Position numbers and translations under genes: made by a program. 64,000 nucleotides of DNA from contig JBIJCI010000001.1 of assembly GCA_044344715.1 (NCBI GenBank), positions 13,713-77,712 on the forward strand. The letters run 5' to 3'. Within the stretch, counting starts at the first letter, position 1, and each line of letters starts with the position of its first letter. Source of the stretch: Ilumatobacteraceae bacterium. GTDB lineage: Bacteria > Actinomycetota > Acidimicrobiia > Acidimicrobiales > Ilumatobacteraceae. Shown piece after piece: positions 3,660-63,116 of the stretch. A model generated the notes under the pieces. That model ran no database searches, was not told the origin of the DNA, and was given only the letters and a program-made list of their open reading frames with translations.

Positions 3660-4456
3660 CGGAACGCCGGACCTTCTGGCGTGACGTAGGCCGAGGTGAT
3701 GCCGCCGTCGATGACGAGGCTCTGACCCGTCATCCAGCTGCTCTCGTTCGACGCAAGGAAGAGTGCACCGTTGACGATTTCGTGCGGCTCGCCGAACCGC
3801 CCCATCGGGATGTGCACCAGACGACGCTCACGCTTGGCATCGTCGCTCAGGAACTTTGCCAGCAGCGGCGTCATCACCGGGCCGGGGCACAATGCATTGG
3901 CCCGCAACCCACGCCGGGCGTAGATCGCCGCGGTTTCCCGTGTGAATGCGAGCACCGCACCCTTCGACGCCGTGTAGGCGACCTGCGGTGTCGCCGCACC
4001 GAGGTGCGCCACGAAGGATGCGACGTTGACGATCGACGACGACTCCCGGCACCGGCCCGCGGATTCGAGCAGGTGCGGAATCGCGTGCCGACAGGCGAAC
4101 ATCACGCCCTTCACGTTGATGTCGATCGTCCGGTTGATCACGTCGTCGGGCGTGTTCTCCGGGTCGTCGTCGGCTGCCAGCATCACCCCGGCGTTGTTGT
4201 ACAACACGTGCAAGTCGCCGAAGGTACCGACGGCGAAGTCGATGGCCCCGCGAACCGAGGCGTCGTCGCTCACATCGCACCGGACCGCGGCGGCGGTCCC
4301 GCCGGATCGGGCGATCGATTGCAGCGTCTCCGTGGCGTCGTCGACGTCGGCGATCACCACCCGTGCCCCTTCGGCGGCGAATCGTTCGGCCCCCACACGA
4401 CCCAGGCCGCTCGCGGCACCGGTGATGAGGGCTACTTTTCCGGCTAGGCGTGGCAT
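3656..4456 (-). CDS. SDR family oxidoreductase
   Basis: GKVALITGAASGLG, NNAG and YTASKGAV (YxxxK) motifs. The stop overlaps the start of the downstream dehydrogenase by 4 nt. Confidence 0.9.
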   Translation of the reverse strand: MPRLAGKVALITGAASGLGRVGAERFAAEGARVVIADVDDATETLQSIARSGGTAAAVRCDVSDDASVRGAIDFAVGTFGDLHVLYNNAGVMLAADDDPENTPDDVINRTIDINVKGVMFACRHAIPHLLESAGRCRESSSIVNVASFVAHLGAATPQVAYTASKGAVLAFTRETAAIYARRGLRANALCPGPVMTPLLAKFLSDDAKRERRLVHIPMGRFGEPHEIVNGALFLASNESSWMTGQSLVIDGGITSAYVTPEGPAFR

Positions 4457-57155: not shown

Positions 57156-60100
57156 TCAACGGAAGTCGCGCGAGGCCATGCGGATCGGCACCCGCAATTC
57201 GGTGAAACGCTCCCCGATCACGTTCACCACGCCCTCGGCATACTGCACGCGGCCGTGAACGAGCAATGCGCTCGCCCGACGCAACACCTCTGCGTGGCGC
57301 ACCCAGCAGCCGCGGGAGCAGAGCACGTTCATCAGGCCGGTCTCATCCTCGAGGCTGAAGAATGTGGTGCCCTTGGCCGTCATCGGTCGCTGGCGGTGCG
57401 TCACCACACCGGCGATGAGCACCCGTGACTCGGGTTCGCGTCCGGCGAGTTCGGTCAGTTCGTGCGCGGTGATCACCCCGAGTTCGCGCAACGACCGGCG
57501 CAGGAAGGTGGTGGGGTGACCCTCGGGTGACACACCCGTTGCCCAGAGATCGGCGACCGCCTCCTCCACCGGCTGCATGCCGGGTAGGTGCGGCGTCGAC
57601 ATGGTGGTAATGCCCTGCAGCCGATCGGGCGACGATTCGACCATGGCCCCCGCGTTCCACAGCGCGGTACGTCGCGACATATCGAACGACTCGCCGAATA
57701 CACCGGCAGTGGCGAGCGCCTCGAGTTGCTTCACCGAGATACCCGGCACACGACGCACGAGATCCTCGACGTCGTTGAACGGTCGCGCCGCTTCGATACG
57801 GGCCGCGAGTTCGGCGCCGATACCCCGTACCGAACCGATGCCGAGCCGCACGGCAAGACCACCGGTCGACTGCGCGTCGGGCTCCAGCCAGGCACCCGCG
57901 CGCGAGGCGTTGATGTCGGGCGTTCGGACCACCACCCCGTGACGTCGAGCGTCCTGCACGAGCGTATGCGGGGACCAGAACCCCATCGGCTGCGAGTTGA
58001 TGAGCGAGGCACAAAAGATCGCCGGCTCGTGCAGTTTGATCCACGCCGACGAGTACACGAGGTAGGCGAAACTCACGGAGTGGCTCTCGGGAAACCCGTA
58101 GTTGGCGAACGCTGCCATCTTGTCGTAGATCTCGTCGGCAACACCGCCGACGATGCCGCGCTGCGCCATGCCCTCGTACAACCGGTCGCGCAAGCGGATC
58201 ATGCGCGTCCTCGAGCGCTTCGATCCCATCGCCTGACGTAGTTCGTCGGCCTGTGACGGCGTGAAACCGGCGACGTCGATTGCCATCTGCATGAGCTGTT
58301 CCTGGAAGAGCGGCACGCCGAGCGTCTTGCCGAGGCTGTTCTCGAGCAACGGATGCAGGTAGGTGACGGGCTCCTGGCCGTTGCGGCGGCGGATGTACGG
58401 GTGCACCGAACCACCCTGGATCGGACCGGGACGGATGAGCGCCACCTCGACGACGAGGTCGTAGAAACGTCGGGGCTTCAAGCGCGGCAGTGTCGACATC
58501 TGCGCGCGGGACTCCACCTGGAACACTCCGACGCTGTCGGCTCGGCACAGCATGGCGTACACCTCGTCCTCCTGCGGAATCTCCGCCAGGTCGATACGCC
58601 GACCACGGAACTCGGCGACGTAGTCGATCGCCCGGTGCAGCGCCGAGAGCATGCCGAGCCCGAGCAGGTCGAACTTGACGAGGTTCACCGCCGCACAGTC
58701 GTCCTTGTCCCACTGCAGCACACTGCGGCCCGGCATCGTCGCCCACTCCACCGGACACACCTCGCTGACCGGACGATCACAGATCACCATGCCACCGGAG
58801 TGAATACCTAGGTGGCGCGGTGCATCCTGCACGCGCTGCGCCAACTGCACCACCAGGTCGGGCACGGTTACCTCGCACTGCTCCCTGACCGGGCTCCACG
58901 AGTCGAAACGGCGGCTGAAGGCGTCCTGCTCCGCGGCCGAGTACCCGAGTGCGCGCGCCATATCGCGCACCGCCGACCGGGCGCGGTAGGTGATCACGTT
59001 GGCAACCTGGGCGGCCCGCAGGCGTCCGTAGCGCCCGTACACGTACTGGATGACCTCCTCGCGACGGTCGCTCTCGATGTCGAGGTCGATATCGGGCGGT
59101 CCGTCGCGCTCGGCGGACAGGAAACGCTCGAACAACAATCCGAGCGAGACGGCGTCGGCCTTGGTGATGCCGAGCGAGAAGCACACCGCACTATTGGCCG
59201 CGCTTCCGCGACCTTGACAGAGGATGTCGTTGCGCTCGCAGAACTGCACGATGTCCCACACGACGAGGAAGTAACCGGGAAACCCGAGCCGCTCGATCAC
59301 GCCGAGTTCGTGGTCGATGGTGCGCCAGGCGCGCGAGCGCAGCGACAAGTCCTCGTGCGCGCCGAGCGGACGCTCGCCGTAGCGACGACGCCCGCCGACT
59401 TCGACGAGTTGCCGCAGGTACTGAATCTCGCTCGAACCATCGGGGCACGGAAACGGCGGCAGGTTGGGGGCGATGAGCGACAGGTCGAATGCGGCCGAAC
59501 GGGCGATGTCGACGGCGCGATCGACCACGCCGGGATACCGGGCGAAACGGTGGTGTTGCTCCGCCGCACTACGCAGGCACGCACCCGCCGCGGGTGGAAG
59601 ACGTGCGTCGAGGTCGTCGAGACTGCACCGGTTGCGCACCGCGGCAAGTGCGCACGCCAGCACGTGGTCACCCGGTGCCGCATACGACACGTCGTTGGTG
59701 GCCACCACGCCGACCTCGCACCGCGCGGCGAGCGCAGCGAGTGCATCGTTGCGCCATACGTCGAGCGGATCACCGTGGTTCCACACCTCGACGAGCACCC
59801 GATCACGACCGAATGCGTCGATCATCAGCCGGAGCGACTCCTGAGCCGACGACGGATCGACGCGCAGGCGGCGGGTGAGTGGTCCGTCGTGCGTGCCGGT
59901 GAGCACGAAACACTCCCCCTTCACGTGCCGCCCCAACGACTCGAGGTCGAACACCGGACGCGACTTCGACCCGCGCATCTGCCCCTCGGTGAGCGCACGC
60001 GACAGTGCGCCGTATCCCGCGGGTCCGTCGGCGATGATCACGATGTCCCCGAACGCGTCGGTACCACCGCACGACACCTCGGCGCCGAACACGGTGCGAA

Positions 60101-60284
60101 CCCCGGTTCCACGAGCCGCCTGGGCGAAACGAACCACCCCGTAGAAACCGTGTCGATCGGTGAGTGCGAGCGCACTCAGCCCGAGGTCGTCGGCAACCTC
60201 GATCAGGTGTTCGGGGGACGATGCGCCGTGCAGGAACGAGAACTGCGACCGGCAATGCAATTCGGCGTAGTTACGCGACGACAC
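57156..60284 (-). CDS. dnaE2: Error-prone DNA polymerase DnaE2 (ImuC)
   Basis: 1042 aa. The PHP-domain start YAELHCRSQFSFLHGAS, the Pol III alpha core and an OB-fold C-terminus. It has a GTG start, lies downstream of imuA'-imuB and is preceded by a LexA box. Confidence 0.93.
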   Translation of the reverse strand: MSSRNYAELHCRSQFSFLHGASSPEHLIEVADDLGLSALALTDRHGFYGVVRFAQAARGTGVRTVFGAEVSCGGTDAFGDIVIIADGPAGYGALSRALTEGQMRGSKSRPVFDLESLGRHVKGECFVLTGTHDGPLTRRLRVDPSSAQESLRLMIDAFGRDRVLVEVWNHGDPLDVWRNDALAALAARCEVGVVATNDVSYAAPGDHVLACALAAVRNRCSLDDLDARLPPAAGACLRSAAEQHHRFARYPGVVDRAVDIARSAAFDLSLIAPNLPPFPCPDGSSEIQYLRQLVEVGGRRRYGERPLGAHEDLSLRSRAWRTIDHELGVIERLGFPGYFLVVWDIVQFCERNDILCQGRGSAANSAVCFSLGITKADAVSLGLLFERFLSAERDGPPDIDLDIESDRREEVIQYVYGRYGRLRAAQVANVITYRARSAVRDMARALGYSAAEQDAFSRRFDSWSPVREQCEVTVPDLVVQLAQRVQDAPRHLGIHSGGMVICDRPVSEVCPVEWATMPGRSVLQWDKDDCAAVNLVKFDLLGLGMLSALHRAIDYVAEFRGRRIDLAEIPQEDEVYAMLCRADSVGVFQVESRAQMSTLPRLKPRRFYDLVVEVALIRPGPIQGGSVHPYIRRRNGQEPVTYLHPLLENSLGKTLGVPLFQEQLMQMAIDVAGFTPSQADELRQAMGSKRSRTRMIRLRDRLYEGMAQRGIVGGVADEIYDKMAAFANYGFPESHSVSFAYLVYSSAWIKLHEPAIFCASLINSQPMGFWSPHTLVQDARRHGVVVRTPDINASRAGAWLEPDAQSTGGLAVRLGIGSVRGIGAELAARIEAARPFNDVEDLVRRVPGISVKQLEALATAGVFGESFDMSRRTALWNAGAMVESSPDRLQGITTMSTPHLPGMQPVEEAVADLWATGVSPEGHPTTFLRRSLRELGVITAHELTELAGREPESRVLIAGVVTHRQRPMTAKGTTFFSLEDETGLMNVLCSRGCWVRHAEVLRRASALLVHGRVQYAEGVVNVIGERFTELRVPIRMASRDFR

Positions 60285-60848
60285 TCACTCACGATAGCGA
60301 ACATACGTTCGTAGGGCGGCCGTAAGCCCGCCCCGCAAGCCGGGATCGGCAACGGCGAACGCCTCGTCGGGCGCGAACCACCGGGCGTCGGGACTCTCCC
60401 CCTCTCCCGGACGCGGATCATCGTCACCGGCCAGCAACACGTACCGCACGTCGAAGTGCCGGTGCCCGCGGGGACCGGGATGCACGTCGAGGTGGATGAG
60501 TTGCGGACCGTCGTGCGGATGCGCCACGTGGAGGCCGAGCTCCTCCTGCGACTCGCGCACCGCCGCGGCGGCCGGATCCTCGTCGTGCTCGATATGACCG
60601 CCGGGCTGCAACCACAGACCAAGCCGCTTGTGCACGTGCAGGGCGACACCCCGACGACCGACGACTATCGCCGAGGCCGTGACGTGACGTACGTCGGCAT
60701 GTTCGCTGAGTGGAGCCGTCAGTTGCGGCACCACGTCGAGGAACTCGGCGATGGAGTCGCGTTCCCGGTCGTCGACCGGTGTCGCTGCACGGAAATGCGC
60801 GCACAACGATTCGACGAGTCGGACATCGTGCGGCGAGACGGCGGACAT
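60285..60848 (-). CDS. NUDIX hydrolase
   Basis: The NUDIX box GHIEHDEDPAAAAVRESQEELGL fits GX5EX7REUXEEXGU. ATG at 60848 is the likely start. The TGA stop abuts the dnaE2 GTG. Confidence 0.8.
   Translation of the reverse strand: MSAVSPHDVRLVESLCAHFRAATPVDDRERDSIAEFLDVVPQLTAPLSEHADVRHVTASAIVVGRRGVALHVHKRLGLWLQPGGHIEHDEDPAAAAVRESQEELGLHVAHPHDGPQLIHLDVHPGPRGHRHFDVRYVLLAGDDDPRPGEGESPDARWFAPDEAFAVADPGLRGGLTAALRTYVRYRE
60298..60311 (-). promoter_or_regulatory. LexA (SOS/Cheo-type) box upstream of dnaE2, followed by a TAnnnT -10-like hexamer
   Basis: The coding-strand sequence is CGAACGTATGTTCG (GAAC-N4-GTTC palindrome), then C, TATCGT (60296-60291), 6 nt and the GTG start at 60284. It lies inside the last 9 codons of the NUDIX ORF. 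Confidence 0.7.
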
Positions 60849-60876: not shown

Positions 60877-62456
60877 TCAGGCGTACAGCGCGGCGAGGCG
60901 CCAGACGCCACGCTCGAGCACGGCAATCGCGGCAACGACCGGACCACCCCGGCTCGTGCAGCGCATCAGCACCTGCAACCGCACCATACGGCGTGCACGA
61001 CGCGGATCCCACCACCGTTCCTCCACCGGCCACGGCCCCGCCCATGCCACAACGTCGTAGCGACGCGCACCAATGCACACCACCGAGGGACCACCGCTCA
61101 TCGCATGCCGTGCGTCGACCGCGATGCAACGCCCGCCTGCATCGAGCACCCCGATTTCGGGGGCATCGGACGACGAATCGAACACCAACGTCGGTGCGGG
61201 TGACGGCAACGCACCGCTCCATTCGCCCGCTGCAGCATCGAACACGGCGCCCCTCGTGCGCCGCTCCACATCGACCGCGTCGCTGCGCACGAACTCGAAC
61301 GATCGTGCCGGGTCGCGGTCGCCGCGCCACGCCGGCACGGTGACCGACCCTGCTCCGATCATGTCGGCGATCCGACGCATGGCGCGCTGGGCGTGCCGAT
61401 CGCCGTCACGCTCGCCACCCCACAGTGCCGCCTGGCGTCCCGCATCGACGACGACCTGCTCGGGCGACAACCGAACCGAAACGACACCGCTGGTCGGCGC
61501 AGCATGGGCGATCCATGCGTCGAGTTGCCAACGCAGGCTCTCGACGATTGCACGATCGGTGAAACCATCGGATCGGTACCACATCCGTTCGGTGCGCTCA
61601 CCGTGGTCGGACTCGACGAGGATGTGCAGGCGGACCACCGCCAACCCGAGTGCGCGCAGATGATCCACCAATCCAGCGGAGAGTCCGGTGGCCGCCGACA
61701 CCACCGCATCGCGCGATTCGACCGGTTCGTCGAACTGCAGGAGTCGTACCCGTTCGGGGGTTGGTGCCACGACGAGCGGCGGGTGGCGGTCGAGCCCACG
61801 CGACAAACGCGAGAGATCACGACCGAAGGCACCGAACCGTGCGATCACATCCGCTTCCGACAACGCGGCGACGTCACCGAAGCGGTAGAGACCGAGTCGC
61901 TCCAAGAGCGACACGATGTCGCGGTACGACGCAACGTTTCCGACACCGGGAACTCCCGCCCCCACCGTGCCGATCACCCCGACGCAGTCGACCAGAGCGC
62001 GCACCGACGAGGTGGCGAGCCAGTGTGCCGATGCCGCAACGGGCACGACGAGGGGCTCACCCGACCGGATGGCATGGTGCGACGCAATGCCCGCGGCGAG
62101 GCGACCATCGGCGATACCGACACCGAATACTGCCAGTGACTCGTCGACCACCAATCCCCGCGCGGCGGCAATCATCGTGCGCACGGCATCGTGCACCGCC
62201 GTATGCATGATGCCGGCGAGCCGGTCGTCGCCACCGACATAACGCGACGGGCCGCGCGTGGCAACGATGATGACCCCCGGTGAGGCAACCTCGACGAGTG
62301 GCGCATATGCGACGACCGCCTGCACGATCGTCTCGAAGGCACTGCGTGCACTGCAACCGAGCGCTGCCGAATACTCCGACCAGCGGGGAAAGTGGACGAC
62401 TACGACGCGGGTAGGGGAAAGTGGACGACTACGACGCGGGTTGGGGCATCGGGCAT
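60877..62456 (-). CDS. imuB: ImuB (Y-family polymerase-like mutasome subunit); reading frame interrupted near its 5' end by a 29-bp tandem duplication
   Basis: The body (…VVVVHFPRWSEY…GVIIVATRG…) is ImuB-like. ATG 62456 reads MPDAPTRVVVVHFP and then terminates at TAG 62402-62400. Removing one 29-nt repeat copy restores a 516-codon ORF running to stop 60877. As sequenced, the only long in-frame option is GTG 62508, which adds an Arg/Cys/Pro-rich extension. Confidence 0.75.
62385..62442. repeat. 29-bp tandem direct duplication (2 copies)
   Basis: 62385-62412 is identical to 62414-62441 (ggggaaagtggacgactacgacgcgggt). The 29th base differs (a62413, t62442). gggg follows both copies, giving microhomology at the junction. 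Confidence 0.95.
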
Positions 62457-63070
62457 GGCAGCGTGACCGTCCCTTCGCGCGGCGACGGACAACGTCGACC
62501 GTCGACACGCATCCGCACCGTGCGCTGCGTGATGTGCGACCCGCCGTGTTCGATGCCCGACCACGACACCGTGTCGGCATGCACGTCGAGATCGGATGCG
62601 AACACGCTCGCCGAACCGAGCGCCGGCAACGCAGGAAGATCGACCGCGATGAGCACCGACTGTCGGGCGAGGATGCGCGACTGCAAACGCCGTGCATCGT
62701 GCGCACTCAACGTGGGGGGTGCGGCAACGATGAGCACGTCGAACCCCTCGACCAGTGCGGCGGCCGTCGTGACCCATTCGCGGCTGGCGCGGGGAGGTTG
62801 CACGAGCACGATGCGCTCGATGGCGACACCCGCCTCGATCGCCGCGGTGACACCGAGGTTGGGCACACCCACGACCGCCAACCACGAGCCGGAACGGGTG
62901 GCGGCGGCGGAGAGGGCGAGCGCCGTGGTCAATGCGGCATCACCCGTGCAGCCGACGGTGCGGCCACGGACGAGACCGCCGTCGACGAAGAGCGAGGCCA
63001 ATGGTGCCGTAACGGGTAAGGGGGCACGCACGATCGGGGTGCCGAGGCGGGTGCGGAGTTCGGTAGTCAC
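62429..63070 (-). CDS. imuA': ImuA' (RecA/SulA-like mutasome accessory protein)
   Basis: 213 aa. GCTGDAALTTALALSAAATRSGSWLAVVGVPNLG is typical of ImuA'. It is the first gene of the cassette, has a GTG start and has a LexA box 14 nt upstream. Confidence 0.8.
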   Translation of the reverse strand: MTTELRTRLGTPIVRAPLPVTAPLASLFVDGGLVRGRTVGCTGDAALTTALALSAAATRSGSWLAVVGVPNLGVTAAIEAGVAIERIVLVQPPRASREWVTTAAALVEGFDVLIVAAPPTLSAHDARRLQSRILARQSVLIAVDLPALPALGSASVFASDLDVHADTVSWSGIEHGGSHITQRTVRMRVDGRRCPSPREGTVTLPCPMPQPAS

Positions 63071-63083
63071 CCCCTCACCATAG

Positions 63084-63097
63084 CGAACAGGTGTTCG
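63084..63097 (-). promoter_or_regulatory. LexA (SOS/Cheo-type) box upstream of imuA', followed by a TAnnnT -10-like hexamer
   Basis: The coding-strand sequence is CGAACACCTGTTCG, then C, TATGGT (63082-63077), 6 nt and GTG at 63070. A CATAAT element also lies just upstream at 63108-63103. Confidence 0.7.
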
Positions 63098-63116
63098 CCC
63101 CCATTATGGGAAGGGA

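Follow-up and report, generated by a model that had tools for sequence, protein, structure and literature searches.

A 29-nt tandem duplication in the imuA'/imuB overlap separates imuB from its start codon in a freshwater Ilumatobacteraceae assembly

The window analyzed here is a 64,000-nt stretch of contig JBIJCI010000001.1, assigned to a freshwater member of the Ilumatobacteraceae (Acidimicrobiia), and it carries a damage-induced mutagenesis cassette consisting of imuA', imuB, a NUDIX hydrolase gene and dnaE2 (Table 1). Within the imuA'/imuB overlap a 29-nt segment is present twice in tandem, and the start codon of imuB no longer reads into the body of the gene. This raises the question of whether imuB has been lost by mutation, whether the second copy was introduced by sequencing or assembly, whether the copy number acts as a reversible switch, or whether ImuB is still made by another route. 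We favour a very recent, private loss-of-function duplication in one lineage, to which we give a probability of roughly 0.6.

The tandem pair occupied positions 62385-62413 and 62414-62442, with the two copies matching at 28 of 29 bases. Tandem Repeats Finder reported the array at 62385-62446 (period 29, 2.1 copies, 96% matches, score 117) and it was the only one in the 64-kb window with a score above 59. The minus-strand 28-mer ACCCGCGTCGTAGTCGTCCACTTTCCCC occurred exactly twice, head to tail, at 62385-62412 and 62414-62441, and 100 shuffles of the window yielded no match to it. The repeat is real and far beyond chance. Both the program and the sequence bear out the first-pass annotation, which had described at these positions an exact 28-nt repeat with a period of 29 nt, a single mismatch and gggg after both copies. 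The unlike 29th base is A at 62413 and T at 62442 on the plus strand; on the minus strand this is A at 62442 against T at 62413, next to the duplication junction, and in the ImuB frame it falls on the synonymous third position of Pro5 (CCA vs CCT). GGGG follows each copy on the plus strand, and on the minus strand CCCC closes each copy (62414-62417 and 62385-62388) as well as standing upstream of the pair.

A unit of 29 nt is 2 mod 3 and shifts the reading frame, so that translation from the native imuB start (ATG 62456) leaves the ImuB frame after codon 14. Copy 1 holds the imuA' stop codon, TAG 62431-62429, one frame off imuB; repeated 29 nt downstream in copy 2, this codon comes into frame with ATG 62456 and translation therefore ends after 18 codons. 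The ImuB body frame continues from copy 2 as CCT ACC CGC (PTR...). Deletion of either copy gave a 1551-nt ORF (516 aa plus stop) running from ATG 62456 to 60877, the product of which is identical to database protein P0123. Translation thus agreed with two earlier claims, that ATG 62456 overlaps the end of imuA' and stops at TAG 62402-62400 after 18 codons, and that loss of either copy restores an ORF of 1551 nt and 516 codons. The overlap of imuA' with the imuB ATG is 28 nt, and the imuA' product is unchanged by the duplication because its stop codon lies in copy 1.

The ImuB body frame is open upstream to 62706 and contains seven candidate starts, from 62706 down to 62196, with GTG 62508 and GTG 62325 the nearest to the native one. 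GTG 62508 lies inside imuA', out of frame with that gene, and its 543-aa product would have 31 foreign residues before PTRVVVV in place of the native four (MPDA). An N-terminal extension from this codon had been foreseen and stands, but not at the proposed size of about 34 residues, as the net gain over the 516-aa protein is 27. GTG 62325 would give a 482-aa product without residues 1-34, which in an AlphaFold model include strand beta1 (7-12), helix 16-22 and most of helix 27-39, as expected from the earlier statement that this start removes the first beta-strand. This product would lack beta1 and the first two helices of the Y-family palm-type fold, in line with a likely loss of ImuB. The predicted duplex energy with the 16S tail was -12.9 kcal/mol for ATG 62456, compared to -5.3 for GTG 62508 and -3.1 for GTG 62325, against a background of random upstream 22-mers in the window with a mean of -4.6 and a 5th percentile of -9.6 kcal/mol. 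ATG 62456 is the only start with a convincing ribosome-binding site, and it is placed where ribosomes ending imuA' could reinitiate. Since both GTG codons pair at background level, intact ImuB is probably not made; ribosomes should produce the 18-aa peptide and little or no ImuB.

It is nevertheless conceivable, though we consider it very unlikely, that ImuB is still made as the 543-aa or the 482-aa protein, or by ribosomal frameshifting from the ATG frame, so that the arrangement is a functional variant. The background Shine-Dalgarno pairing of both GTG codons, the out-of-frame position of GTG 62508 inside imuA' and the missing beta1 and two helices of the 482-aa product all speak against this, even though the body frame is open upstream, the 482-aa ORF is called in public annotation and N-terminal EGFP-ImuB fusions stay mutagenic in M. 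smegmatis (PMC10421592). A -1 shift would be needed between 62456 and 62402, and inspection of that interval (CAC TTT CCC CTA CCC GCG TCG TAG) revealed no canonical X XXY YYZ slippery heptamer. Rescue by programmed -1 frameshifting or transcriptional slippage was rejected on the grounds that neither a slippery heptamer nor a long homopolymer is present. The arrangement was also found in no relative (16 same-species contigs and nine species representatives). The public annotation (NCBI and JGI/IMG) places the gene at 60877-62325 on the minus strand as a 482-aa 'protein ImuB' starting at GTG 62325, which masks the frameshift and omits the conserved N-terminal 34 residues. A practical value of the analysis is to flag this mis-annotated gene, an 'ImuB' without its N-terminal strand.

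Comparison with relatives established which copy number came first. In each of the 16 same-species contigs, which come from independent JGI, ENA and Logan samples, imuB was intact and the unit was present once, with the sequence ...GCCCCAACCCGCGTCGTAGTCGTC[C/T]ACTTTCCCCGCTGG..., and the junction T was carried by none of the 16. Three of these contigs are near-identical to the window, and the species occurs in samples such as JGI 3300036398, 3300059473 and 3300044611, ENA ERZ28593582, and SRA runs SRR27421868 and SRR11637992. All nine of the closest species representatives (ImuB identity 64-73%) likewise had one copy, with an N-terminus conserved as M-x-D-x-PTRVVVV-x-FP-HWS. Every member of the 90% protein cluster was 516 aa in length except the window's own 482-aa product. 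The nearest contig (JGI 3300036398 Ga0334988_0000045) differed by nine substitutions and one gap over 20,079 aligned columns, the sole indel being the 29-nt duplication. The window's ImuA' and DnaE2 had exact protein matches on a GCA_041443025.1 contig whose imuB encodes 516 aa. Tandem Repeats Finder detected no high-scoring array at the imuB start over the fetched loci L001-L101. Two exact-pattern scans of metagenome contigs (one with a 0-30-nt gap, one for the 28-mer) were empty and uninformative, as the collection also missed the known JGI contig and evidently does not contain the species. Judged from these sequences, a single copy is the ancestral and prevailing state, as the first-pass annotation had implied, and its refuting scenario of a fixed, functional two-copy variant shared by relatives is ruled out by the single copy in 16 contigs and nine species. 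The event is either extremely recent or artificial. The rest of imuB shows no decay after the duplication.

The single-copy allele suggests how the second copy could arise. It has CCCC just before the unit and again at the unit's end, 29 nt apart, and a nascent 3' end slipping from the downstream CCCC back to the upstream CCCC would generate exactly this duplication. The 29 nt added within the overlap would then comprise a copied segment of 28 nt and one base mis-inserted at the junction, with the mismatched T as the first base made after realignment, a junctional misincorporation. A single event is favoured over a duplication followed by a later substitution because the mismatch lies at the junction and T is found in no relative. 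An origin of this T from a co-occurring allele was rejected, given its absence in the 16 same-species contigs.

The duplication leaves the 512-codon ImuB body without a credible start, with ImuA', the NUDIX protein and DnaE2 untouched. In mycobacteria mutasome activity depends on each of ImuA', ImuB and DnaE2 individually (PMC10421592), and because each component is required the allele should abolish or strongly reduce SOS-induced mutagenesis in carrier cells. Under the favoured reading it is an ordinary null allele that could revert by precise loss of one copy, and not a selected switch.

Several points weigh against a recent loss of function. The evidence comes from assembled contigs, so the second copy may be a sequencing or assembly artefact, and the two-copy allele was found in one assembly only, a 130,225-bp contig (NCBI and JGI). 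The junction error (A to T) can also mark a chimeric join. In addition, induced mutagenesis in M. smegmatis persists with an N-terminal EGFP tag on ImuB (PMC10421592), so the extended protein from GTG 62508 might also work and the allele would then not be a strict null.

An artefact is the main rival to a real mutation. The organism would in that case have one copy, the second resulting from a mis-join, a local misassembly of metagenomic reads or a chimeric molecule; we consider this possible but on balance unlikely. The restriction of the two copies to one assembly would be explained, as would the single copy in three near-identical assemblies (L081, L082/L102 and GCA_041443025.1) and an odd junction T that fits no known allele, and the contig derives from a metagenome in which strain variants are present. 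The assembly is, however, not generally indel-prone, the duplication being the sole indel in 20 kb compared to the nearest relative, and the CCCC microhomology supplies a natural biological mechanism. De Bruijn-graph assemblers output only k-mers present in the reads. At a typical final k above 58, reads spanning both copies would need to exist and to outweigh the one-copy path. A Logan contig (L085) that starts 8 nt downstream of the repeat was considered as a branch between one-copy and two-copy paths in the assembly graph and rejected, as such a branch is expected right after the A/T difference and not at 62377. Taken together, the evidence leans towards a real mutation over an artefact.

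The first-pass annotation had also raised a reversible copy-number switch (phase variation), in which one copy would turn ImuB on and two copies would turn it off, tuning damage-induced mutagenesis. This found no support, with two copies in one assembly and an ancestral state without a repeat tract, and we consider it highly improbable. No better odds attach to the variant in which the two-copy allele is one state of a natural cycle in freshwater Ilumatobacteraceae, arising and reverting by slippage at the CCCC-bounded 29-nt unit. If a switch did operate, DNA damage would raise the mutation rate in some subpopulations and not in others. A unit length that is not a multiple of 3, an otherwise intact cassette, and a tandem duplication that can be precisely lost, making reversion mechanistically possible, are compatible with switching, and the repeat-mediated on/off conversion of Salmonella mutL offers a precedent (PMC2955026). 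Against this, one copy in 16 of 16 same-species contigs and nine of nine related species means that there is no standing repeat tract, the two-copy state was observed once, no high-scoring array was detected at the imuB start across L001-L101, and the CCCC/CCCC microhomology is just 4 nt. Of the properties that define a phase-variable locus, a frame-shifting unit was found, and a standing tract with several copy states among close relatives was not.

As a recent loss of imuB, if real, the allele marks one natural population or strain in which an abundant freshwater actinobacterium has just lost damage-induced mutagenesis with the cassette otherwise kept, and adds a small data point on the dispensability of ImuA'-ImuB-DnaE2 in the wild. 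The event reveals no new mechanism. The initial description of the locus was accurate and its alternatives were sensible, and its interpretation is partly supported.

Other slippage products were found in relatives. Four species representatives (L002-L005) share a tandem duplication of 30/31 nt, old and in frame, at this imuA'/imuB junction. Adjacent units matched at 20/30 positions in L002 and 18/30 in L003, where the background stood at 8.9 +/- 2.6; within each locus, adjacent 30-mers matched this well or better in a fraction of 0.0007 and 0.0012 of pairs, respectively. This duplication lies approximately 30 nt upstream of the imuB ATG (locus positions ~3969-4000), extends from CCATG to the imuA' stop TAG and adds approximately 10 residues to the C-terminus of ImuA'; in L002-L004 it also gives imuB a second in-frame ATG or GTG upstream. 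A more distant clade, with ImuB at 36-38% identity, has a 15-nt unit repeated in tandem and in frame inside imuB, in two to six copies depending on the genome. This repeat encodes (E-N/S-H/R/Y-A/S-L/P)n, an ENHAL-like pentapeptide, in a loop approximately 20-25 residues upstream of the QLRLWG clamp motif. The junction region and imuB tolerate slippage elsewhere in the family, where in-frame products are retained. The same distant clade also has near-perfect tandem arrays of two types upstream of the cassette (Table 1).

The cassette belongs to the ImuA'-ImuB-DnaE2 family: an ImuA' neighbour, a Y-family fold, a clamp motif with an ImuB-C region, DnaE2 and a LexA-type box were all present, and an intact imuB frame was not. 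The gene identities proposed at the outset were upheld by family matches (ImuA' NF058630, 105 bits; DnaE2 NF004225, 1382 bits) and by the Y-family fold of the ImuB model. DnaE2 contains the Pfam domains PHP, DNA_pol3_alpha, finger, HHH_6 and OB. Its gene begins right after the stop codon of the NUDIX gene, and a NUDIX gene between imuB and dnaE2 is also present in L081-L101; a nucleotide-pool sanitiser paired with an error-prone polymerase may deserve a look.

Two LexA-type palindromes, both GAAC-N4-GTTC, precede imuA' and dnaE2. A LexA-type box was found upstream of imuA' in 16 of the 17 loci checked, including every closer relative examined, and also before dnaE2 in 14 of the 17; in relatives down to ~37% ImuB identity its distance from the imuB start is similar. 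The recurrence of these palindromes before both genes makes LexA control of the cassette plausible. On the minus strand the regions upstream of imuA' (63071-63100) and dnaE2 (60285-60312) are near-copies of each other, reading GAAC-N4-GTTC GCTAT(G/C)GTGAG.G.GTG, and a TAnnnT-like hexamer follows each LexA-type box, ending 6 nt before the GTG start. This layout suggests two promoters under separate SOS control, whose transcripts may be leaderless.

The repaired ImuB was modelled with AlphaFold from an alignment of 39 sequences (mean pLDDT 74.8). The model places strand beta1 at residues 7-12 and helices at 16-22 and 27-39, and its C-terminal region is rich in beta structure. Foldseek comparison of the model to the PDB returned DinB, Dpo4, Pol iota and Pol kappa (E 1e-12 to 1e-9, probability 1.0), and ImuB is accordingly modelled with a Y-family polymerase fold; NCBIfam Pol IV matches were weak and below cutoff. 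By inspection beta1 (RVVVVHFP) contains no Asp or Glu, and Pfam IMS (PF00817) was unmatched. The catalytic acidic position in this strand is one that we presume from the motif position in DinB and Dpo4. In the clamp-type motif, Q332 and W336 were invariant and L335 and G337 nearly invariant among the 39 homologues. All-beta structure is predicted for the C-terminal 100 residues, which include an invariant block (W462/G464/P465/W466/P467/E470/W472/W473). The QAALWG motif agrees with published accounts of ImuB as a Y-family adaptor that is catalytically dead and has a clamp motif and an ImuB-C region (PMC6511836; PMC10421592).

Table 1. Positions of the duplication, the cassette genes and associated elements (window coordinates unless a locus is named).
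Feature	Position	Strand	Details
Copy 1 of the 29-nt unit, first in coding direction, AACCCGCGTCGTAGTCGTCCACTTTCCCC	62414-62442	-	Encodes Pro5(CCA)-TRVVVVHFP in the ATG 62456 frame; holds the imuA' stop codon
Copy 2 of the 29-nt unit, TACCCGCGTCGTAGTCGTCCACTTTCCCC	62385-62413	-	First base T (62413) is the sole mismatch, at the junction
Upstream CCCC microhomology	62443-62446	-	Sequence inspection; likely slippage anchor, by the proposed mechanism
Junction-specific k-mer of the two-copy allele, CCACTTTCCCCTACCCGCGTCG
Residual 18-codon ORF from the native imuB ATG, MPDAPTRVVVVHFPLPAS	62400-62456	-	Stops at TAG 62402-62400
ImuB body frame, residues 5-516 of the intact protein	60877-62415	-	Detached from its own start codon
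Shine-Dalgarno-like element, CGAAGGGACGG	62467-62477	-	Ends 10 nt upstream of ATG 62456
QAALWG, beta-clamp-binding-type motif, ImuB residues 332-337	61417-61434	-	Alignment of 39 homologues
imuA', 213 aa from GTG 63070	62429-63070	-	NCBIfam NF058630, 105 bits vs cutoff 65, E 3e-30
NUDIX hydrolase gene, 187 aa, between imuB and dnaE2	60285-60848	-	Generic NUDIX/MutT-like matches, below cutoff
dnaE2, error-prone DNA polymerase, 1042 aa, intact	57156-60284	-	NF004225, 1382.6 bits vs cutoff 939, full length
LexA-type palindrome, GAACAGGTGTTC	63085-63096	.	Ends 15 bases upstream of the imuA' GTG (14 bases between)
LexA-type palindrome, GAACATACGTTC	60299-60310	.	Ends 15 bases upstream of the dnaE2 GTG (14 bases between)
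15-nt repeat in imuB (distant clade)	L029 4817-4850; L030 4816-4854; L035 4731-4814; L037 2839-2907; L049 4816-4867
Array of 29-41-nt period, AGCCGCACG.AGTAAGGC... (distant clade)	L023 2044-2119; L028 1931-2006; L049 1924-1983; L024 1-57; L029 1936-2036		~2 kb upstream
Array of 14-nt period, CGTGCTGATTAGAC, 3 to 5 copies (distant clade)	L028 3699-3759; L029 3702-3769; L035 3639-3686		~250-300 nt before the imuB match

The cassette resembles the mycobacterial mutasome (PMC10421592, PMC6511836) in having an ImuA' homologue directly upstream of, and overlapping, a Y-family homologue, putatively of the catalytically dead type, that has a QxxLWG clamp motif and a C-terminal region rich in beta structure, together with an error-prone DnaE2 and LexA-type operators. 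In mycobacteria the cassette is split into imuA'-imuB and dnaE2, whereas here dnaE2 is linked, with the NUDIX gene between imuB and dnaE2, and has its own second LexA-type box; imuB is, moreover, frameshifted in the window. In Salmonella mutL, functional and defective alleles interconvert through 6-bp repeats and the conversion has been detected experimentally (PMC2955026). The two cases share a small change in tandem-repeat copy number within a mutability gene, by slipped-strand mispairing, that separates a functional from a defective form. In mutL, however, the repeat tract is already present in the functional allele, whereas the native imuB allele is free of repeats, the alteration shifts the frame and only one instance is known. 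The closest likeness is to ordinary microhomology-mediated duplication by replication slippage, with a CCCC-bounded unit, head-to-tail copies, a private event and a gene that is otherwise undecayed. Nothing essential differs from such duplications, the sole peculiarity being the putatively mis-inserted base at the junction.

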